22,262 bases of DNA from a virus (IMGVR_UViG_2700989171_000001), one strand, 5' to 3'; counted from the first letter of the stretch, positions 4,212 through 18,174 are shown. The notes: generated by a model not told the origin, from the letters alone. Made by a program: numbers and translations.

Positions 4212-4628
4212 TTATACCTCTGAATCAATATCAACCTGGTGGCGGGCAATAGTTTCAACCATGTACCGGATGTGTTCTGCCATGCGCTCCTGAAACTCAA
4301 CATCGTCATCAAACGCACGGGTAATGGCTTTTTTGCTGGCCCCGTGGCGTTGCAAATGATCGATGCATAGCGATTCAAACAGGTGCTGGGGCAGGCCTTT
4401 TTCCATGTCGTCTGCCAGTTCTGCCTCTTTCTCTTCACGGGCGATCTGCTGGTAGTGACGCGCCCAGCTCTGAGCCTCAATACGATCCTGAATGTAATAA
4501 GCGTTCATGGCTGAACTCCTGAAATAGCTGTGAAAATATCGCCCGCGAAATGCCGGGCTGATTAGGAAAACAGGAAAGGGAGTTAGTGAATGCTTTTGCT
4601 TGATCTCAGTTTCAGTATTAATATCCAT
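4212..4628 (-). CDS. gam: Lambda Gam, RecBCD inhibitor
   Basis: 138-aa translation [49 protein letters not shown]... matches lambda Gam. Confidence 0.95.
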
Positions 4629-4726
4629 TTTTTATAAGCGTCGACGGCCTCACGAAACATCTTTTCATCGCCAATAAAAGTGGCGATAGTGAATTTAGTC
4701 TGGATAGCCATAAGTGTTTGATCCAT
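4583..4726 (-). CDS. kil: Kil (host cell-division inhibitor), 47 aa
   Basis: ATG at 4726; [47 protein letters not shown] matches lambda Kil; overlaps gam start as in lambda. Confidence 0.85.
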
Positions 4727-4859
4727 TTTTTGGGACTCCTGGCTGATTAAGTATGTCGATAAGGCGTTTCCATCCGTCACGTAATTTACGGGTGATTCGT
4801 TCAAGTAAAGATTCGGAAGGGCAGCCAGCAACAGGCCACCCTGCAATGGCATATTGCAT
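4695..4859 (-). CDS. cIII: CIII (FtsH/HflB inhibitor), 54 aa
   Basis: ATG at 4859..4857; translation [54 protein letters not shown]; missed by the ORF track (under 60 aa, different frame from kil). Confidence 0.85.
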   Translation of the reverse strand: MQYAIAGWPVAGCPSESLLERITRKLRDGWKRLIDILNQPGVPKNGSNTYGYPD

Positions 4860-4931
4860 GGTGTGCTCCTTATTTATACATAACGAAAAACGCCTCGAGT
4901 GAAGCGTTATTGGTATGCGGTAACGCCGCGC

Positions 4932-5300
4932 TCAGGCGGCTTTGATAGTCATATCATCTGAATCAAATATTCCTGATGTATCGATATCGGTAATTCTTAT
5001 TCCTTCGCTACCATCCATTGGAGGCCATCCTTCCTGACCATTTCCATCATTCCAGTCGAACTCACACATAACACCATATGTATTTAAGTCGCTTGAAATT
5101 GCTATAAGCAGAGCATGTTGCGCCAGCATGGTTAATACAGCATTTAATACAGAGCCGTGTTTATTGAGTCGGTATTCAGAGTCTGACCAGAAATTATTAA
5201 TCTGGTGAAGTTTTTCCTCTGTCATTACGTCATGGTCGATTTCAATTTCTATTGATGCTTTCCAGTCGTAATCAATGATGTATTTTTTGATGTTTGACAT
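4932..5300 (-). CDS. ea10: Ea10-like protein (122 aa)
   Basis: MSNIKKYIIDYDWKASIEIEIDHDVMTEEKLHQINNFWSDSEYRLNKHG... matches lambda Ea10 as recalled. Confidence 0.8.
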   Translation of the reverse strand: MSNIKKYIIDYDWKASIEIEIDHDVMTEEKLHQINNFWSDSEYRLNKHGSVLNAVLTMLAQHALLIAISSDLNTYGVMCEFDWNDGNGQEGWPPMDGSEGIRITDIDTSGIFDSDDMTIKAA

Positions 5301-5318
5301 CTGTTCATATCCTCACAG

Positions 5319-5346
5319 ATAAAAAATCGCCCTCACATTAGAGGGC
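5319..5346 (-). terminator. Putative rho-independent terminator (tL-type) between ral and ea10
   Basis: Minus-strand RNA hairpin GCCCUC-UAAUGU-GAGGGC followed by a U6 run (plus strand aaaaaatcgccctcacattagagggc). Confidence 0.55.
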
Positions 5347-5482
5347 AAAGAAGATTTCCAATAATCAGAACAAGTCGGCTCCTGTTTAGTTACGAGCGAC
5401 ATTGCTCCGTGTATTCACTCGTTGGAATGAATACACAGTGCAGTGTTTATTCTGTTATTTATGCCAAAAATAAAGGCCACTA

Positions 5483-5683
5483 TCAGGCAGCTTTGTTGTT
5501 CTGTTTGTCAAGTTCTCTGGCAATCATTGCCGTCGTTCGTATTGCCCATTTATCGACATATTTCCCATCTTCCATTACAGGAAACATTTCTTCAGGCTTA
5601 ACCATGCATTCCGATTGCAGCTTGCATCCATTACATCGCTTGAATTGTCCACGCCATTGATTTTTATCAATAGTCGTAGTCAT
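5483..5683 (-). CDS. ral: Ral, restriction alleviation protein (66 aa)
   Basis: MTTTIDKNQWRGQFKRCNGCKLQSECMVKPEEMFPVMEDGKYVDKWAIRTTAMIARELDKQNNKAA matches lambda Ral. Confidence 0.9.
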   Translation of the reverse strand: MTTTIDKNQWRGQFKRCNGCKLQSECMVKPEEMFPVMEDGKYVDKWAIRTTAMIARELDKQNNKAA

Positions 5684-5753
5684 ACGGATAGTCCTGGTAT
5701 TGTTCCATCACATCCTGAGGATGCTCTTCGAACTCTTCAAATTCTTCTTCCAT
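5667..5753 (-). CDS. Small acidic ORF (28 aa), lambda orf28-like
   Basis: ATG at 5753..5751; MEEEFEEFEEHPQDVMEQYQDYPYDYDY; its stop overlaps the ral start (tATGActacgactattga). Confidence 0.45.
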   Translation of the reverse strand: MEEEFEEFEEHPQDVMEQYQDYPYDYDY

Positions 5754-5896
5754 ATATCACCTTAAATAGTGGATTGCGGTAGTAAAGATTGTGCCTGTCT
5801 TTTAACCACATCAGGCTCGGTGGTTCTCATGTACCCCTACAGCGAGAAATCGGATAAACTCTATTCACCCCTACAGAGAGCAAAAGAGAAACGCCG

Positions 5897-6478
5897 ATGA
5901 ACAACTCATGGTGGCAGGAACTAATGCATTTTTTCCTGCAAGGAATGACACTTAAACAGTTGATTCATATGCTAATCATTCTGATCATATTGATTATTGT
6001 TATGCCGGTAAGCGTAAAAGAATGGATAAACCTGCATAATCCAGAAATCCTTCCTCATTACTGGATGTATTACATCCTGTTGTTTTGCGTTAGCTATGTG
6101 CTTAACGGCGTTGTTAATTCCGCTTATCACGCTGTGACTGAAAGAATTGAGGTATCCGCTGCTCAGAAGCGCAAATCTAAAGAAGAAAAATATGTGCAAG
6201 ATTTGTTTGATTCATTAACTCTTGGAGAAAGAGCGTATTTGGCATTCGCTGTAGCCGCTAATAACCAGCTACAAACGGAAAAGGGAGCTCATGAATCAAT
6301 TTCATTGCTCAAAAAAGGACTCCTCGTTCGAAGGCCTCCTGCTGTTGGATATCCTGATACCGACCGTTTCGTTATCCCTGAAAGCTATAGACATGAGTGC
6401 TACATTAGGTTTGCCGGGAAGGCAGACAGCCTTATGGATGAACTTATCGCTCAGGATAAGCATGGCAAAAACAAGTAA
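5897..6478 (+). CDS. sieB: Superinfection exclusion protein B-like membrane protein (193 aa)
   Basis: Plus-strand ORF opposite to the leftward operon; hydrophobic segments LIHMLIILIILIIVMPV and YWMYYILLFCVSYVLNGVV; translation matches lambda/P22 SieB as recalled; AT-rich. Confidence 0.7.
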   Translation: MNNSWWQELMHFFLQGMTLKQLIHMLIILIILIIVMPVSVKEWINLHNPEILPHYWMYYILLFCVSYVLNGVVNSAYHAVTERIEVSAAQKRKSKEEKYVQDLFDSLTLGERAYLAFAVAANNQLQTEKGAHESISLLKKGLLVRRPPAVGYPDTDRFVIPESYRHECYIRFAGKADSLMDELIAQDKHGKNK

Positions 6479-6494
6479 TTAGCAAATGAATTTA

Positions 6495-6767
6495 TCATCT
6501 CGCCGTCAGTTGTTTTGATTTCCGGTAGCCTGCCGCGTAAATGGCTACGTTTGGCAGGCAAATACTTCCACTGCATTCATCTGCCTTCTTGCAGCGAAGG
6601 CTTCCGAGTGATGCTGCTTTGTCTGCTCTGACGCAACCAGAGAGCTTTAGCGCAATTTTTCGCGCCAGTCGCTGTTCTTGCATTGCCTGCTCACGTTGAG
6701 CCTGTCTGCGTGCTCTGCGGCGATTTCTGGCGTTATCGTTAGCCAGATATGTAATGACTACTGCCAT
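6495..6767 (-). CDS. N: N-type transcription antiterminator (90 aa) with N-terminal arginine-rich motif
   Basis: ATG at 6767 preceded by GGAGG; arginine-rich NARNRRRARRQAQREQ near the N-terminus; middle segment ARKIALKLSGCVRADKAASLGSLRCKK resembles phage 21 N and the C-terminal YAAGYRKSKQLTAR resembles P22 gene 24 protein, from memory. Confidence 0.8.
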   Translation of the reverse strand: MAVVITYLANDNARNRRRARRQAQREQAMQEQRLARKIALKLSGCVRADKAASLGSLRCKKADECSGSICLPNVAIYAAGYRKSKQLTAR

Positions 6768-7054: not shown

Positions 7055-7080
7055 AAAGAAAAAAAGGGGCGAATGCCCCT
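7055..7080 (-). terminator. Putative rho-independent terminator at the 3' end of c2
   Basis: Minus-strand hairpin AGGGGC-AUUC-GCCCCU followed by U-rich tract (plus strand aaaaaaaggggcgaatgcccct); overlaps the c2 stop codon. Confidence 0.6.
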
Positions 7081-7730
7081 TATGGAAGGTTTGCTATTTT
7101 TGCATCGACAACTACACCGATGATTTTGCAGTTCCCGTTGATCTCAATCATCGGATATTGTGGGTTAAGTGGTTTTAGAAACCTTCTACCAGCATCAATA
7201 ACTAACTTCTTGAAAGTTGCCTCGTTTTCTCCTTCGAGCTTTGCCACTACCAGCTTCCCATTACGAGGTTCTACTTCAGGATCAACAAGTATTATCATCC
7301 CTTCCGGGATGCTAAGACCGGCTGGAGCCGTCATCGAATCACCCTTTACGTCCAGCCAAAACGAATCTTCTGAACAATCTACGGTTGTATCGTACCAGTT
7401 ATCTATTGCACGCTTATGATATGGCTCTACAGCTTCCATCCAACATCCTGCGCTTACCCAACTAATTAGAGGATACGAACCTCTTGGATCATGCCTGCTG
7501 TGATAGGCAATGTTTGAAAGACTATCTTCTCCTTTCAACAAGTAATCAGGGGAGCACTGTAAAGCCTTGGCTAAAGCCAATAGGTTTTCGCCATTGGGCT
7601 CAGTTTCAGAACGCTCCCATTGGGAAATAGCAACATTAGACACGCCAACCATCTTGCCAAGGGCAGCCTGCCTAATCTTAAGTTCTTTTCTGCGAGCGCG
7701 AATACGCTCACCCATCAGTTGTGTATTCAT
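7080..7730 (-). CDS. c2: P22 c2-type (CI-like) repressor, 216 aa
   Basis: MNTQLMGERIRARRKELKIRQAALGKMVGVSNVAISQWERSETEPNGENLLALAKALQCSPDYLLKGE... matches P22 C2 repressor (N-terminal HTH, C-terminal LexA-like autocleavage domain) as recalled. Confidence 0.95.
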   Translation of the reverse strand: MNTQLMGERIRARRKELKIRQAALGKMVGVSNVAISQWERSETEPNGENLLALAKALQCSPDYLLKGEDSLSNIAYHSRHDPRGSYPLISWVSAGCWMEAVEPYHKRAIDNWYDTTVDCSEDSFWLDVKGDSMTAPAGLSIPEGMIILVDPEVEPRNGKLVVAKLEGENEATFKKLVIDAGRRFLKPLNPQYPMIEINGNCKIIGVVVDAKIANLP

Positions 7731-11686: not shown

Positions 11687-12290
11687 ACCAGCGCGAAGAC
11701 GATGTAAAAACGATGAATGTCGGGAATGGTTTCACCCTGCATTCGCTAATCAGTGGTGGTGCTCTCCAGAGTGTGGAACCAAGATAGCACTCGAACGACG
11801 AAGTAAAGAACGCGAAAAAGCGGAAAAAGCAGCAGAGAAGAAACGACGACGAGAGGAGCAGAAACAGAAAGATAAACTTAAGATTAGAAAACTCGCCTTA
11901 AAGCCCCGCAGTTACTGGATTAAACAAGCCCAACAAGCCGTAAACGCCTTCATCAGAGAAAGAGACCGCGACTTACCATGTATCTCTTGCGGAACGCTCA
12001 CGTCTGCTCAGTGGGATGCCGGACATTACCGGACAACTGCTGCGGCACCTCAACTCCGATTTGATGAACGCAATATTCACAAGCAATGCGTGGTGTGCAA
12101 CCAGCACAAAAGCGGAAATCTCGTTCCGTATCGCGTCGAACTGATTAGCCGCATCGGGCAGGAAGCAGTAGACGAAATCGAATCAAACCATAACCGCCAT
12201 CGCTGGACTGTTGAAGAGTGCAGGGCCATCAAGGCGGAGTATCAGCAGAAACTCAAAGACCTGCGAAACAGCAGAAGTGAGGCCGCATGA
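11676..12290 (+). CDS. ninG: NinG / Rap recombination endonuclease (204 aa)
   Basis: [63 protein letters not shown]... matches lambda NinG (Rap). Confidence 0.9.
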
Positions 12291-12333
12291 CGTTCTCAGT
12301 AAAAACCATTCCAGATCACAAGGGAGAAGGCGC

Positions 12334-12822
12334 ATGGGCATAAGAGAACTAAACCTCACCAAAGAACAGCACGAGTGGCTGAATGGCTGGCTTGAACTGT
12401 GGGGCGCATGGGTTTATTCAGGTCGTCTGGAAAAGCGCATGAGCAGCGTAATAGCGAAGTTCATGGAGAGCGTAGAGCCGGGAAGAGTTATGACAAGGCC
12501 AATGTGTAATGATGATGATGGAATGTTGATTTCTCAGGTCGTCGATTCCGTCATGTACATTGACAAGAAAGCCTTTGGCATCCTCCTCAGCTACTACGCC
12601 CACGGCTCTTCCAAGCACGCCATTGCATCTTACTATCATCGCGTCGCAAGACCTCGCAAGATGTTATGCCGGGGCGGCGGGCGCATTCAAAAACCATCGC
12701 TCGCAACCTGTCGACGGGAAGTTGACGAAATCATCAATGCCTCGTTGTTTATGATTTACCCGGTTCTGGATAGTGCGTTTAAAAACCGGAAACGTGTAGA
12801 GAAAATTAAACATATAGCATAG
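12334..12822 (+). CDS. Q: Late-gene antiterminator Q, phage 21 / QuuD-like family (162 aa)
   Basis: ATG at 12334 with AAGGGAGAAGG RBS directly after ninG (no ninH/ninI); MGIRELNLTKEQHEWLNGWLELWGAWVYSGRLEKR...PMCNDDDGML... resembles Q21-type antiterminators rather than lambda Q; sits immediately upstream of phage-21-type lysis genes. Confidence 0.7.
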   Translation: MGIRELNLTKEQHEWLNGWLELWGAWVYSGRLEKRMSSVIAKFMESVEPGRVMTRPMCNDDDGMLISQVVDSVMYIDKKAFGILLSYYAHGSSKHAIASYYHRVARPRKMLCRGGGRIQKPSLATCRREVDEIINASLFMIYPVLDSAFKNRKRVEKIKHIA

Positions 12823-12913: not shown

Positions 12914-12988
12914 GGGTCAGTCGTATAAAGGTCATTACGGAAGGCTGTTAACCTTCTTATCGTGGTTCGAGTCCACGCTGTCCCGCCA
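12914..12988 (+). tRNA. tRNA-like gene, anticodon GTT (Asn) by manual fold; possibly degenerate
   Basis: 75 nt ending in CCA; perfect anticodon stem gaagg/ccttc with loop ctGTTaa; T-arm cgtgg-ttcgagt-ccacg; but one mismatch in the acceptor stem (gggtcag/ctgtccc) and a 3-bp D-stem. Confidence 0.45.
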
Positions 12989-12993
12989 AATAT

Positions 12994-13069
12994 GCTGGTT
13001 TAGCTCCAATGGTAGAGCGGTCGCCTTGTAAGCGAATGGGTAGCGGTTCAAGTCCGTTAACCAGCACCA
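12994..13069 (+). tRNA. tRNA, anticodon TGT (Thr) by manual fold
   Basis: Perfect 7-bp acceptor stem gctggtt/aaccagc, D-arm gctc-caatggta-gagc, anticodon loop ctTGTaa, T-arm agcgg-ttcaagt-ccgtt, discriminator A plus CCA. Confidence 0.65.
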
Positions 13070-13403: not shown

Positions 13404-13900
13404 TGCCTCCATCATTACGAAAAGCCGTTGCTGCGGCTATTGGTGGCGGGGCTATTGCTATAGCATCTGTGTTAATCACTGGCCCAAGTGGTAACGATGG
13501 TCTGGAAGGCGTCAGCTACATACCATATAAAGATATCGTTGGTGTATGGACTGTATGTTACGGGCATACCGGAAAAGACATTATGCTCGGTAAAACGTAT
13601 ACCGAAGCAGAATGCAAAGCCCTCCTGAATAAAGACCTTGCCACTGTCGCCAGACAAATTAACCCGTACATCAAAGTCGATATACCGGAAACAACGCGCG
13701 GCGCTCTTTACTCGTTCGTTTACAACGTTGGTGCTGGAAATTTCAGAACATCGACGCTTCTTCGCAAAATAAACCAGGGCGATATCAAAGGCGCATGTGA
13801 TCAGCTACGGCGCTGGACATACGCTGGCGGTAAGCAATGGAAAGGTCTCATGACTCGTCGTGAGATTGAGCGTGAAGTCTGTTTATGGGGGAAGCAATGA
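13403..13900 (+). CDS. R: SAR endolysin (lysozyme with N-terminal signal-anchor-release segment), R21-type
   Basis: TAATG overlap with S; N-terminal [20 protein letters not shown] hydrophobic Gly/Ala-rich SAR segment followed by a lysozyme-like domain; matches phage 21 R as recalled. Confidence 0.9.
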
Positions 13901-14289
13901 AGATCCACTACAAGATAATTATCTTCGCGTTCGCATTGAGCGTACTGGGCGTCATCGTTTGGTCAGCAAGCCATTATCACGATAAGTATCAGGCGGAACG
14001 GCTACGCGCAGATGCTGCCGAGCAGAACGCCAACGCCGCCGAAGCGATCACCGCCAACGTCATTCGGTCTGTGAACATCATCAACGCCATTGCAGAGGCC
14101 AACCAGGATGCAAAGAACCAGATCACACTGGAGTCACAGGGAGCCCAAGCAGATATCAAAGTGGCTATTGAGAATGATGACTGCGCTCATCGGCCTGTGC
14201 CTCCTGCAACTGCTCACCGGCTGCGGCAATTCGCGGACAGTTTACGTACCGGTATCGGTAGTGCCTCTACCGGCAAACCTGACAGCTGA
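13897..14289 (+). CDS. Rz: Spanin, inner-membrane subunit (Rz-like), 130 aa
   Basis: ATGA overlap with R; N-terminal transmembrane segment [16 protein letters not shown] followed by charged, coiled-coil-like periplasmic region. Confidence 0.7.
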
Positions 14290-14431
14290 GACGCAACAGC
14301 CAGCCATTCCCGAACCGCTGACCTATGGGGCCAGTCTGGAGCTGAATGTTAGCCTGCTATCGGCGCTGGGTCAGTGCAACATCGATAAGGCTAGTATCAG
14401 GAAGATTGAAGAGTCTCGGACCTCTCTGTAG
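14174..14431 (+). CDS. Rz1: Spanin, outer-membrane lipoprotein subunit (Rz1-like), overlapped architecture
   Basis: +1-frame ORF beginning inside Rz with lipoprotein signal [17 protein letters not shown] (lipobox LLTGC); Pro-rich; extends about 140 nt beyond the Rz stop. Confidence 0.6.
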   Translation: MMTALIGLCLLQLLTGCGNSRTVYVPVSVVPLPANLTAETQQPAIPEPLTYGASLELNVSLLSALGQCNIDKASIRKIEESRTSL

Positions 14432-14551
14432 AAGACTATTTTGCTGCCATGAAGAAGCTTTATATCTTTGGTCAATACATCGAACAGATCAGATAATTCT
14501 TATGTGATTGATGCTATATTTATCCCCTATTTAAACATGGGAGTTACGGAT

Positions 14552-15352
14552 ATGTCTGTCAGTCAAGATATTTATAAGTCTACACTTAGAGTTGAAAGTG
14601 ATACTCCAGAGGGAACCTCGGTAGGAACTGCTTTCTGGTTTTGCTTTGTTATGGAAGGTGGTGAAGATATTGTTCCACTCTTGGTAACTAATAAGCATGT
14701 TGTTAACGGGGCAACAGAAGTTAGGCTACGTCTAAACATTACCGACAGCGCAAATCCTGAGATAAAATTTTATAACCTAACAATTTCAGAGGGGGCAAAT
14801 GCGTTCATTATGCACCCTGATGATAATGTTGATATATGCATATTGCCTATCGCTGGATTGCTGAATGAGATGGAGAAAAGTGGCATTAGCCCAGAACTCT
14901 TCTTTTTCACAGATCGTCAGATGCGTGGTAACAATTACATTACTCCTGTCGAAGATGTTTACATGACAGGATATCCAAATGGATTATGGGATTCTGTAAA
15001 CAATAGGCCTGTTACCAGGAAAGGCATCACAGCATCATCACCTATGGAAAACTGGAAGGGTAAGCCTGAATTCCTCATTGATATGGCTTGTTTCGGTGGT
15101 TCTAGCGGTTCTCCCGTTTATATAATGAACCAAGGCTCATATGCTACTAATGATGGTATTGCTATGGGGGAGAGATTAATTTTCCTTGGGTTGTTGTATG
15201 CAGGGCCAGTAACGAATGTTAGCGGGAATATTGAAATTATTGACGTACCAACAGTCGCTACACCAGTTGTGCGTTCTGAAATTACAATGAATCTCGGATT
15301 TGTTATTAAAGCAGAGAAGCTAAATGACTTTAAGCCTCTCTTGGGGATTTAA
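14552..15352 (+). CDS. Trypsin/chymotrypsin-fold serine peptidase-like protein (266 aa), apparently cytoplasmic; moron of unknown role
   Basis: ATG at 14552 with GGGAG 7 nt upstream; motifs consistent with an S1-type triad: LLVTNKHVV (His49), HPDDNVDICIL (Asp), CFGGSSGSPVY (Ser); no N-terminal signal peptide; locus visibly AT-rich relative to neighbours. Confidence 0.7.
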   Translation: MSVSQDIYKSTLRVESDTPEGTSVGTAFWFCFVMEGGEDIVPLLVTNKHVVNGATEVRLRLNITDSANPEIKFYNLTISEGANAFIMHPDDNVDICILPIAGLLNEMEKSGISPELFFFTDRQMRGNNYITPVEDVYMTGYPNGLWDSVNNRPVTRKGITASSPMENWKGKPEFLIDMACFGGSSGSPVYIMNQGSYATNDGIAMGERLIFLGLLYAGPVTNVSGNIEIIDVPTVATPVVRSEITMNLGFVIKAEKLNDFKPLLGI

Positions 15353-15358
15353 CACAAG

Positions 15359-15379
15359 CCGCCTCCGGACGGTTTTTTT
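15359..15379 (+). terminator. Putative rho-independent terminator after the protease gene
   Basis: Short GC hairpin (ccgcc-tccg-gacgg, one mismatch) immediately followed by T7 (ggttttttta), 7 nt after the stop. Confidence 0.5.
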
Positions 15380-15393
15380 ATTGCTATTACAAA

Positions 15394-15415
15394 AGCCACT
15401 CCATGCCGAGTGGCT
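15394..15415 (-). terminator. Putative terminator-like hairpin, oriented for the minus strand
   Basis: Perfect 8-bp stem agccactc/gagtggct with 6-nt loop; on the minus strand it is followed by UUUU then an A-rich tract. Confidence 0.4.
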
Positions 15416-15485
15416 TTGATAATGGCTTATACCCTACACGGGATAACTTAACTGATATCCCAACAAGCGGATAAAGAGGTTCTCA

Positions 15486-15611
15486 ATGTCCGACATCTAC
15501 CAAATCATGTTAACCACCCAAACAGGCGAAACCTTTACGGGTAAGATGTCACGACGTCAGCGTGAGCTGGTTAATGGCTTTATGCAGCCGGCTACCGAGA
15601 TGGGCGAGTAG
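15486..15611 (+). CDS. Small ORF (41 aa), unknown function
   Basis: ATG at 15486 with AAGAGG 7 nt upstream; MSDIYQIMLTTQTGETFTGKMSRRQRELVNGFMQPATEMGE; below ORF-track cutoff; the RBS is the only coding evidence. Confidence 0.35.
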   Translation: MSDIYQIMLTTQTGETFTGKMSRRQRELVNGFMQPATEMGE

Positions 15612-15700: not shown

Positions 15701-15973
15701 CTAATAGCCAGCCATTTGCAAAATCACAGTTGCAGCAGCAGCGAAAGCTGCATATGAGTTATATTTAGACTGTAACCGCGCAGTTAAGAAAAATTCGTGA
15801 AGATCTACATTTTTTTGGGGATCATCAAATGTAATTGCTACAACGGTGCTTCTACCTGTTTTGACTTTGGCTGTTGCTGATTTGATCCATAACCCAGCCG
15901 ATAAAAAACCAAAGAAAATTGATAGTGTATGATGGTCAATTAACCAGTTTTTAATTAGTAATAAATCACTCAT
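15701..15973 (-). CDS. Small membrane protein (90 aa), unknown function, divergent from the terminase genes
   Basis: ATG at 15973..15971 (the track ORF start at 16018 is a TTG); hydrophobic segment HTLSIFFGFLSAGLWI and Ala-rich C-terminal segment; AT-rich. Confidence 0.5.
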   Translation of the reverse strand: MSDLLLIKNWLIDHHTLSIFFGFLSAGLWIKSATAKVKTGRSTVVAITFDDPQKNVDLHEFFLTARLQSKYNSYAAFAAAATVILQMAGY

Positions 15974-15997
15974 TTTCAATCCAATTGAGACTTTGCC

Positions 15998-16549
15998 ATG
16001 GCACTCACCGACAAACAAGAAATGTTCTGTCGCGAGTACCTCATCGATTTAAACGCCACACAAGCGGCTATTCGGGCGGGGTACAGCGCAAAGACAGCCA
16101 ACCGTACTGCGTCCGAAAACATGTCAAAACCTGACATCAAGTTAAGAATCGCTGAACTGAAAGCGCAACGCAATGATCTTGTTGGTATTAATGCAGAATA
16201 TGTACTTAATCGCCTTCTTGAAATCGACCAGATGGATGTGCTTGACATTCTCCTGCAAAACGGTGAGCTAAAACCCATTAAAGACTGGCCTAAGGTATGG
16301 CGCACAACGCTATCAGGAATGGATGTCGTGGAGATGGTATCCGCAGATAGCGCCGCACTTCTGAAGAAAATCAAATGGCCTGATAAGGTTAAAAACCTTG
16401 AGTTGCTTGGGCGTCATGTTTCTGTTCAGGCGTTTAAAGACAACGTCAAAAATGAAGTGACTGGCGCTGATGGAGGACCAGTCAGAACAGAAATTACCAA
16501 CTTAACGCCGGAGCAGGCTGCAGAGGCGTATAGAAAAATGATGGGCTAA
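15998..16549 (+). CDS. Terminase small subunit (183 aa)
   Basis: [57 protein letters not shown]... is a typical N-terminal HTH DNA-binding domain of phage small terminases (P27/Terminase_2-like); immediately precedes the large subunit. Confidence 0.85.
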
Positions 16550-16551
16550 GT

Positions 16552-18174
16552 ATGCCGTTACCATTCCCCTTCGATTTTAAACATCCTGATTACCAGATGG
16601 TTTTTGAATGGCGGATGGAACGCCTACAGCGCATTCGCCAGAATCCTGAAATATTGCCCGTGTTGAAGCAGTTTTACCGAACCAATCCGGCTCAGTTCAT
16701 CATCGACTGGGGCATGACAACGGACCCGCGTAATATTGATTATGGCCTGCCGGTGACCATTCCGTTTTTACTCTTCCCTAAGCAGGAGGAGTGGATCCAC
16801 TGGATTATGGAACGCTGGAGCAATCGGGAGAATGGTATTACCGAAAAATCCCGTGAAATGGGGCTCAGTTGGACCGCGATCGGACTGGCCTGCTCGCTTT
16901 GTCTCTTCAACAAAGAAATGGTTATCGGTTTCGGCTCCCGTAAAGAGGAATACGTCGACAGCACTGGTGACCCGAAAGCATTGTTCTGGAAGGCGCGCAA
17001 GTTCGTGGAAACGCTACCTGTAGAGTTTCGCGGTTCGTGGAGCGAGAAGAAGCACGCGCCATATATGCGTGTTGAGTTTCCTGAAACTGGTGCCGTTATC
17101 AAAGGCGAGGCTGGCGATAATATTGGTCGCGGTGACCGTACCACGCTTTATCTGGTTGATGAGGCTGCATTCCTTCAGCGTCCTCTGCTGATTGATGCGG
17201 CGTTGTCACAAACGACGCGTTGCCGTATTGACCTGAGTTCAGTTAACGGCATGGCGAACCCGTTCGCACAGAAGCGTCATGGCGGGAAGATACCGGTATT
17301 CACATTCCACTGGCGGGATGATCCTCGCAAGGATGAAGAGTGGTATCGCAGGGAATGCGAGAAAATCGATAATCCGGTGGTGGTGGCACAGGAACTTGAT
17401 CTGAACTACAGCGCATCAGCGGAAGGCGTCCTGATTCCATCCGAATGGGTACAGGCTGCCGTTGATGCGCATATCAAACTGGGTATCCAGCCAACAGGCA
17501 AACGACTTGGCGCGATGGATGTCGCCGACGAAGGCAGGGACAAAAATGCCTTTTCCACCCGTCATGGCTTCCTCCTGGAGAATGTGCGGGAATGGTCCGG
17601 TGTGGGCAGCGACATTTATCAGTCCGTCGAGAAGGTCTTCGGCTTTTGCGAACAGGACGATCTTGAAGAGTTTCGCTTTGACGAGGACGGGCTGGGCGCT
17701 GGCGTTCGCGGCGATGCACGCGCTATCAACGAACTGCGTAACGCTGCGCGTCGACCGTCAATACTCGCCACACCGTTTCGAGGTAGTGGCGCGGTATTTG
17801 ATCCGGATGATGAAGCTGTTCGCGGGGACAACGGGCAAGCCGCACGTCTGAACAAGGACTTCTTCGCTAACGCCAAAGCCCAGAGCTGGTGGCGGTTACG
17901 TAAACTTTTCCAGAACACCTACCGTGCCGTGGTTGAGGGCATGGCCTACAACCCGGACGAAATCATCTCAATCAGCAGCGCCATGGCGAGCAAAGACAAA
18001 CTCATCATCGAGCTGTCGCAGCCGACCTACTCCATTAACGGCGTGGGGAAAATCGTTGTTGATAAACAGCCTGACGGCACCAAGTCGCCGAACCTTGCCG
18101 ACTCGGTGATGATCAGCTACGCGCCAATGAATTCAGCCCTGAACATCTGGGAGCTGCTAGGGAGACAGGCCTGA
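16552..18174 (+). CDS. Terminase large subunit (540 aa)
   Basis: Size and position; ATPase region with Walker B-like LYLVDEAAF and C-terminal nuclease-like region; not lambda A-type. Confidence 0.85.

Follow-up and report, generated by a model that had tools for sequence, protein, structure and literature searches.

A PDC-S45 family trypsin-fold protease carried as a single-gene cassette in the lysis–terminase junction of a lambdoid prophage: a candidate anti-phage factor

Introduction

Trypsin-like proteases that activate adjacent pro-effectors are described as widespread in defence (PMC12799240, PMC12642450, bioRxiv 10.1101/2025.09.03.673762). In the literature searched, the validated trypsin-like defence proteases are multi-gene only: trypsin–MBL (metallo-β-lactamase), nuclease–protease pairs, Avs2 and HamMAB. 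Here we describe a single protease gene in IMGVR_UViG_2700989171_000001, a 22,262-nucleotide stretch of viral DNA that we call the window; positions are counted from its first letter. The window corresponds to the left 22.3 kb of IMG/VR contig UViG_2534681628_000026. The gene sits between the spanin and terminase genes of a lambdoid prophage and encodes a 266-amino-acid (aa) serine protease. By profile matching, the protein is a member of PDC-S45, a catalogued candidate family, and not a new kind of system. We put at about one half the chance that this prophage cargo works on its own, as a single-gene factor that excludes competing phages or aborts their infection.

The protease compares with the described systems as follows. 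PDC-S45 members have the same single-gene build, a length of ~265–290 aa and a Trypsin_2 domain; no structural difference separates the window gene from them. The proteases of multi-gene defence systems (Hachiman, AVAST/Avs2 and Argonaute pairs, retron type XI and Lamassu) are similar in being cytoplasmic and of Trypsin_2 type. However, each of them works with a sensor (STAND, helicase, reverse transcriptase or SMC) and a pro-effector that it activates, as a fusion or as a pair, whereas the window protease is unfused and has no conserved neighbor. It is very probably not part of a protease–effector module, as the window holds no MBL-fold hydrolase or nuclease pro-effector and the protein no fusion. 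PADLOC gives weak matches to the protease part of RT-Protease_XI (E 2.7e-6) and LmuA (E 7e-4); no reverse transcriptase or SMC gene lies near the protease, and assignment to retron type XI or Lamassu was dropped. Relative to HtrA/DegP/DegS/Deg (MEROPS S1C) and V8/Esp (S1B), the protease lacks a PDZ domain, a signal peptide and a propeptide and is predicted to be cytoplasmic, and sequence identity is only 15–20%. Membership in HtrA/DegP was rejected: with the NCBIfam model degP_htrA_DO the score is 10.5 bits where the cutoff is 416, and both PDZ domain and export signal are absent.

Several prophage and defence genes are similar in other respects. Lit of the e14 prophage is likewise a prophage-borne, single-gene cytoplasmic protease. 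A phage late protein triggers Lit, which then aborts the infection; Lit is a zinc metalloprotease whose substrate is EF-Tu. Its fold is unrelated to that of the window protease, and it is a functional analogue only. The backup abortive gene PrrC is embedded in a type I restriction–modification (R-M) operon, as are two members of the present family (loci L070 and L076, below). Lambdoid morons such as lambda bor and lom and HK97 gp15 share the deviant composition, the insertion between adjacent genes and the terminator-like hairpin. An autonomous promoter is part of the definition of Hendrix and Juhala, whereas the promoter-like site in the protease leader is at chance level. The tail-assembly-inhibition (Tai) systems carried by prophages and by phage-inducible chromosomal islands were also considered and rejected, as the Tai paper mentions no protease.

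Results

Family identity and distribution

The PADLOC-DB profile of PDC-S45 aligns with residues 2–264 of the protein over profile positions 15–283 of 293 (E 7.5e-100, 331.6 bits). PHROG 7688, a family of unknown function, also matches (E 1.7e-100), and NCBI names the family ‘S1 family peptidase’ or ‘trypsin-like peptidase domain-containing protein’. An earlier note on this DNA had not recognised the protein as a named system; the family is in fact catalogued as PDC-S45/PHROG 7688, with candidate status only. PDC genes are candidates rather than validated systems (PMC11514479), and the one paper found to name PDC-S45 gives it just as a PADLOC match in Sinorhizobium prophages (PMC12429752).

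The family is large and widespread. An exhaustive profile search recovered 1,917 clusters (50% identity) at E ≤ 1e-30 and 4,081 at E ≤ 1e-10, nearly all with members of 265–300 aa. Relatives at ~40% identity occur in at least 510 of 185,579 species-level genomes from Proteobacteria, Bacteroidota, Firmicutes, Actinobacteria, Planctomycetes, Cyanobacteria, candidate phyla radiation (CPR) bacteria and archaea. We take this patchy, very wide spread as typical of mobile defence genes. The family is also present on at least 106 IMG/VR viral contigs and 20 plasmids. The cluster at 90% identity is mostly from Salmonella enterica (Newport, diarizonae and others; >1,300 contigs), with members from E. 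coli and E. marmotae drafts as well. No DNA match was found in complete E. coli RefSeq genomes, while draft E. coli genomes have copies at ≥90% identity.

Gene and predicted product

The gene and the two elements that accompany it are:

14552–15352, + strand: protease gene, encoding a predicted 266-aa cytoplasmic S1/PA-clan serine protease of the PDC-S45 family.
14432–14551, + strand: AT-rich cassette leader, 120 nt, GC 0.33, with the ribosome-binding site (RBS) GGAG at 14540–14543.
15356–15379, + strand: terminator-like short GC hairpin with a T7 run, at the 3′ end of the cassette.

The open reading frame (ORF) runs from ATG at 14552 to a stop codon at 15350–15352, and the GGAG lies 8 nt 5′ of the ATG. 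Two further in-frame starts lie upstream, TTG at 14468 and GTG at 14504, and through them some gene callers give a protein of 282 or 294 aa. Homologues are 264–268 aa long and their alignment begins at M1; translation is therefore likely to start at ATG 14552. Against homologues of 83–97% identity, the ratio of nonsynonymous to synonymous substitution rates (dN/dS) is 0.08–0.21. By this measure the gene is under purifying selection and is thus taken to be real and functional.

Base composition sets the gene apart from its neighbors. Its GC content is 0.403 and its GC at third codon positions (GC3) is 0.345, compared with 0.541/0.593 for Rz, 0.566/0.651 for Rz1 and 0.539/0.610 for terL, and the ORF falls within the lowest 3% of 801-nt windows by GC. 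This foreign composition indicates horizontal acquisition. The N-terminus is acidic and hydrophilic with no hydrophobic region, no signal peptide is found, the isoelectric point is 4.6 and the highest 19-residue Kyte-Doolittle mean is 1.34, giving no transmembrane segment. From these features the protein is predicted to be cytoplasmic, and it is single-domain.

Protein fold and predicted catalytic residues

Trypsin_2 is the sole Pfam domain (E 1.9e-10). In the Protein Data Bank (PDB), the family profile matches the Esp/V8 glutamyl endopeptidases by sequence (E 2.4e-4), and the alignment pairs the motifs of His, Asp and Ser. The AlphaFold2 model, built with 49 homologues, has a predicted local distance difference test score (pLDDT) of 89 and a predicted TM-score (pTM) of 0.86, and is less confident only in the loop at about residues 221–240. 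Model and alignments together confirm a double β-barrel trypsin/chymotrypsin fold with an ordered, predicted His–Asp–Ser triad. The three motifs are TNKHV at residue 46, DNVDIC at residue 91 and GGSSGSP at residue 182, and the predicted catalytic codons are 14696–14698 (H49), 14831–14833 (D94) and 15104–15106 (S185). S185 lies in G183-S-S-G-S-P188 and is taken as the catalytic serine, which the earlier note had not singled out, because of its alignment to GDSGGP and to ‘GGNSGSPV’ of Esp.

All three residues are invariant in 49 sequences. Among 148 representatives of 50%-identity clusters, which are 32–43% identical to the query, H49 and D94 remain invariant and S185 is conserved in at least 90%. 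The same representatives share the family-specific invariant residues H88, G140-Y-P142, D147 and G158. About 80 residues are family-specific and form an N-terminal helix, a long β-hairpin (188–217) and a flexible insertion (~220–247).

The earlier note had described most of these features from the DNA letters. Its 266-aa ORF with its own RBS, the AT-richness of the gene relative to the lysis and terminase genes (GC 0.403 against 0.54–0.57 in the flanks), the lack of signal peptide and transmembrane segment, and the three ordered motifs all hold in the translated gene. Its assignment to the S1 trypsin-fold proteases agrees with the Trypsin_2 match, the model and the triad conservation, and the AlphaFold model that it had proposed as a check does show a chymotrypsin fold.

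Genomic neighborhoods of the family

The gene recurs in a few kinds of position in prophages. In Salmonella P22-like prophages (97% identity), it is always between Rz/Rz1 and the packaging genes, in elements that vary in their terminases, replication modules and immunity regions. In lambdoid prophages of Klebsiella (59% identity) it again lies between the spanin and packaging genes, and the E. coli homologue sits after a different lysis cassette. The Morganella/Providencia BPP-1-like prophages have it directly 5′ of terS, after nin-like genes. A family gene lies beside the lysis module in P2-like prophages and between the tail genes and an integrase/lysis module in a Bacillus phage-plasmid. 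The three genes downstream in 50 non-redundant viral loci are mostly terminases, portals, integrases, or P2-type R/S and lysis genes. The end of the lysis cassette, the terminase-adjacent position and the integrase-adjacent position are recurrent slots in many unrelated prophages, among them carriers with unrelated terminases and heads, and close relatives of the carrier prophages do not have the gene. One remnant in Serratia marcescens (L021 4063–7804, CP118723.1), beside copCD/yebY, keeps holin, lysozyme, spanins and protease and is devoid of head, tail and terminase genes.

Outside prophages, relatives are embedded in defence operons. In Balneola (L046 5986–6822) the order is BrxC-x-PglX-protease-DUF4268, an operon of the bacteriophage exclusion (BREX) type. 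A Micrarchaeia archaeon (L070 5989–6834) has HsdM-PIN-HsdS-protease-HsdR, and Salinibius (L076 5977–6891) has HsdR-YgjP-protease. The intergenic gaps of these BREX- and type I R-M-embedded members are 0 to −8 nt. Other members adjoin PDC-S06 (L053) or a Schlafen/AlbA_2 ATPase (L042), and a 13-kb Acinetobacter plasmid carries a family gene together with an MvaI/BcnI (type II) restriction enzyme and Vsr.

No conserved partner gene accompanies the protease. Among 103 immediate neighbors in 58 non-redundant loci, no family occurs more than three times, and the neighbors of the prophage homologues also differ; a conserved partner was rejected on this basis. In the longer members (P0173, P0189 and others), Trypsin_2 was the only domain found in the search for a fused domain. 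A fused sensor was rejected as well, the N-terminal extensions being probably mis-called starts. The family has a single-gene architecture with no obligatory partner.

Leader, hairpins and cassette boundaries

The insert borders on a conserved element of the phage backbone:

15374–15461, strand not assigned: conserved lambdoid backbone element, 87 nt, non-coding, with a strong hairpin at 15392–15417.

At the left edge, blastn homology in the spanin region is ~70% and ends near the stop codon of Rz1, and a megablast search with 14000–14560 gave no phage match. For these reasons we consider that the leader travels with the protease gene. At the right edge, homology to ~90 phages that have no protease begins at ~15371–15374, inside the T-run, and extends to 15461; in one of these, 569R4, it resumes at ~15371, again within the T-run. 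The cassette therefore covers approximately 14432–15373 (~940 bp) and consists of the leader, the ORF and a short hairpin, whose T-run is also part of the backbone.

The two hairpins 3′ of the gene are of different strength and origin. The first (15356–15375, with the T7 run at 15373–15379) is weak, with a folding energy of −7.3 kcal/mol and a z-score of −1.2, and 25 of 200 shuffled sequences fold equally well. In the Salmonella copy (97% identical) the stem at this site is perfect; here a G-to-A change weakens it. Counterparts of hairpin and T-run are also found 3′ of the protease gene in the Klebsiella and Serratia cassettes. The second hairpin has a perfect 10-bp stem (15392–15401/15408–15417), extendable to arms of 19 nt. 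Its folding energy is −24.6 kcal/mol (z −7.8) on the + strand and −22.9 kcal/mol (z −5.8) on the − strand, where it is followed by UUUUGU. This hairpin lies outside the insert, because it is within the element that is 93–95% identical in ~90 records of lambdoid/P22-like phages with no protease, including Sf6, HK544, mEp460 and IME10. The backbone element is probably a bidirectional terminator at the boundary of lysis and packaging genes. It is unannotated in the phages that carry it. A search of the junction against Rfam gave no family match, and a known RNA element was rejected, the best score being only 18 bits for P9 against a gathering score of 43. The earlier note had reported both hairpins at the end of the gene. 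Both are present, the first weak and the second stronger than the 8 bp it described, and the second belongs to the phage backbone.

Gene order in the window

The gene order, assigned with Pfam and PHROGs, is that of a lambdoid prophage: Q, tRNA-Asn, tRNA-Thr, holin, lysozyme, Rz, Rz1, protease, a 41-aa ORF, a 90-aa ORF, terS, terL and portal. The holin is of P21 type and is followed by the lysozyme, both 5′ of the spanins. The other features are:

12211–12822: antiterminator Q (Pfam/PHROGs).
12914–13069: tRNA-Asn (GTT) and tRNA-Thr (TGT), between Q and holin.
13885–14289, + strand: spanin Rz (Pfam DUF2570; PHROG Rz-like spanin).
14174–14431, + strand: spanin Rz1/LysC, overlapping Rz (Pfam LysC; PHROG Rz-like spanin).
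15486–15611, + strand: 41-aa ORF, matching positions 1–41 of the 66-residue profile of PHROG 6581 (E 2.5e-16).
15701–15973 (listed ORF 15701–16018), − strand: 90-aa ORF, PHROG 14357 (unknown function; E 5e-62).
15998–16549, + strand: terminase small subunit gene terS (Terminase_2).
16552–18174, + strand: terL, followed by the portal gene.

The Rz1–terminase junction of 569R4, Sf6, HK544 and others has no protease gene. From this comparison the protease is an inserted accessory gene in that junction, as the earlier note had proposed. Its further claim that the junction is a recurrent site for such genes fits the presence of the same family in the same slot of mosaically different prophages.

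Other features of the window are given for completeness. The tRNA block is 99% identical to that of Shigella phage SfI and 97% identical to that of phage 21. The 41-aa ORF may be a truncated small phage gene, as suggested by its match to the first part of the profile. The 90-aa ORF is a second AT-rich accessory gene of the junction (GC 0.363, GC3 0.286). It is hydrophobic in its N- and C-terminal segments, is convergent with the protease gene, abuts terS and does not accompany the protease homologues of other prophages. Farther upstream, in an AT-rich stretch at ~4600–6400, a 193-aa ORF (5897–6478, + strand) encodes a protein whose N-terminal segments are hydrophobic. The ORF is flanked by an arginine-rich N-like ORF (6495–6767, − strand) and the recombination region, next to a CI-like repressor gene (7080–7730, − strand), and in size and position it resembles the superinfection-exclusion gene sieB.

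Discussion

Proposed role and mechanism

Several lines of evidence suggest anti-phage activity: the PDC-S45 match, the relatives in defence operons, the plasmid with a restriction enzyme, the recurrent prophage slots and the retention of the gene in the Serratia remnant. The wide spread, the conserved predicted triad, the dN/dS of 0.08–0.21, the foreign composition and the existence of close relatives with no protease gene argue in the same direction. The earlier note had proposed a defence or exclusion effector, and that proposal is consistent with the independent PDC-S45 match and with the neighborhood analysis it had suggested, in which relatives are found within BREX and type I R-M operons and next to a restriction enzyme on a plasmid.

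In the proposed mechanism the protease would stay latent, or do no harm, toward its own host and phage. On infection by a competing phage, it might directly cleave a protein of that phage. Alternatively, a phage product may switch the protease on, and cleavage of an essential host protein would then abort the infection in a Lit-like manner. By analogy with the activation loops of HtrA, the candidate elements for latency or recognition are the flexible insertion (~220–247), the invariant GYPxGxWD..NN..R.G loop and H88. The lysogen could express the protein at low level from the AT-rich leader; alternatively, expression could come with the Q-dependent late transcript.

Evidence against a defensive role and alternative explanations

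A number of observations weigh against a defensive role. A weak sigma-70-like site is present in the leader (14469–14497, TGGTCA-17-GATAAT, 9/12 match), but the scan for such promoters found 5 sites where 5.1 are expected from shuffled sequences, which is chance level, and no clear −35/−10 elements are shared upstream of the diverged homologues. An own sigma-70 promoter is therefore not supported; of the moron label given by the earlier note, the insertion and the deviant composition stand. What is established for lambdoid late operons makes the Q-dependent late promoter the expected source of transcription by default. In every case the gene points the same way as the late genes. In the Morganella/Providencia prophages 33–36 nt separate it from the preceding gene and ~50 nt from terS, no terminator intervenes, and it appears to be co-transcribed with the phage genes there. 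The Morganella homologues have neither a promoter-like site nor a terminator-like hairpin. Expression from the leader in the lysogen is possible, but expression may be confined to lytic growth. Were the cytoplasmic protease constitutively active, it would have to be controlled, and the sequence shows no mechanism for this. Many chromosomal neighbors of the family are housekeeping genes. The PADLOC label is itself that of a candidate, and the searchable literature yielded no experimental test of PDC-S45. Finally, tblastn against the 50,697 phage genomes of INPHARED returned no relatives. The family is thus missing from that collection and yet present in >1,000 Salmonella and Klebsiella assemblies and on at least 106 prophage-derived IMG/VR contigs; carriers may be rarely inducible, or sampling may simply be sparse.

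The position of the gene would also suit a late-expressed accessory protease that serves the phage itself, in counter-defence or host takeover, by breaking down a protein of the host, such as an immune or stress factor, during lytic growth. The gene shares its strand with the lysis and packaging genes within the Q-dependent late operon, its promoter evidence is at chance level, the Morganella/Providencia copies are tightly packed, and the lysis module is again the neighbor in P2-like and Bacillus elements. We nevertheless regard such a role as unlikely, since relatives occur within BREX and type I R-M operons, on small plasmids and in phage-free chromosomal regions, and the Serratia remnant has kept the gene without virion genes. 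The gene is absent from the deposited phage genomes, including many close lambdoid/P22-like relatives, and counter-defence genes are usually early and not located after the lysis genes. Selfish or neutral cargo with a non-immune role, such as a lysogenic-conversion protease acting on host physiology or regulators, would make the association with defence a product of shared integration hotspots. Prophage accessory slots also carry virulence and fitness genes such as lambda bor and lom, many chromosomal neighbors of the family are ordinary metabolic genes, and PDC status is based on association only. This explanation seems somewhat less probable still. It does not account well for the 0 to −8 nt embedding in R-M and BREX operons of distant taxa or for a family that spans phyla and domains at ~40% identity and keeps its catalytic core invariant, and the lack of a secretion signal makes a classical virulence role unlikely. 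The protease could instead be half of a two-component module, with the 41-aa ORF or the 90-aa membrane ORF as partner. Pairs of a protease and an adjacent pro-effector are widespread in defence, according to the reports cited in the Introduction, and the 90-aa ORF is AT-rich and in the same junction. The neighbor census largely refutes this idea, with no family in more than 2–3 of the 103 immediate neighbors. The downstream genes of the Salmonella and Klebsiella homologues differ (DUF2560, PhageMetallopep or the terminase directly), and the 90-aa ORF runs toward the protease gene, with the backbone terminator element lying between the two. We therefore consider a two-component module very improbable.

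Significance

What is new for the family are the cassette boundaries, the recurrent Rz1–terS and equivalent slots and the BREX- and type I R-M-embedded examples. If the defensive role is not validated, the gene is simply an accessory protease. The cassette is short, with defined boundaries, and the catalytic-dead controls S185A and H49A make the hypothesis cheap to test. The lysis–terminase junction of enterobacterial prophages is a slot worth mining for defence cargo. If validated as a single-gene anti-phage factor, PDC-S45 would be among the smallest protease-based anti-phage systems and, unlike the multi-gene protease–effector modules, would combine sensing and killing in one chymotrypsin-fold domain.

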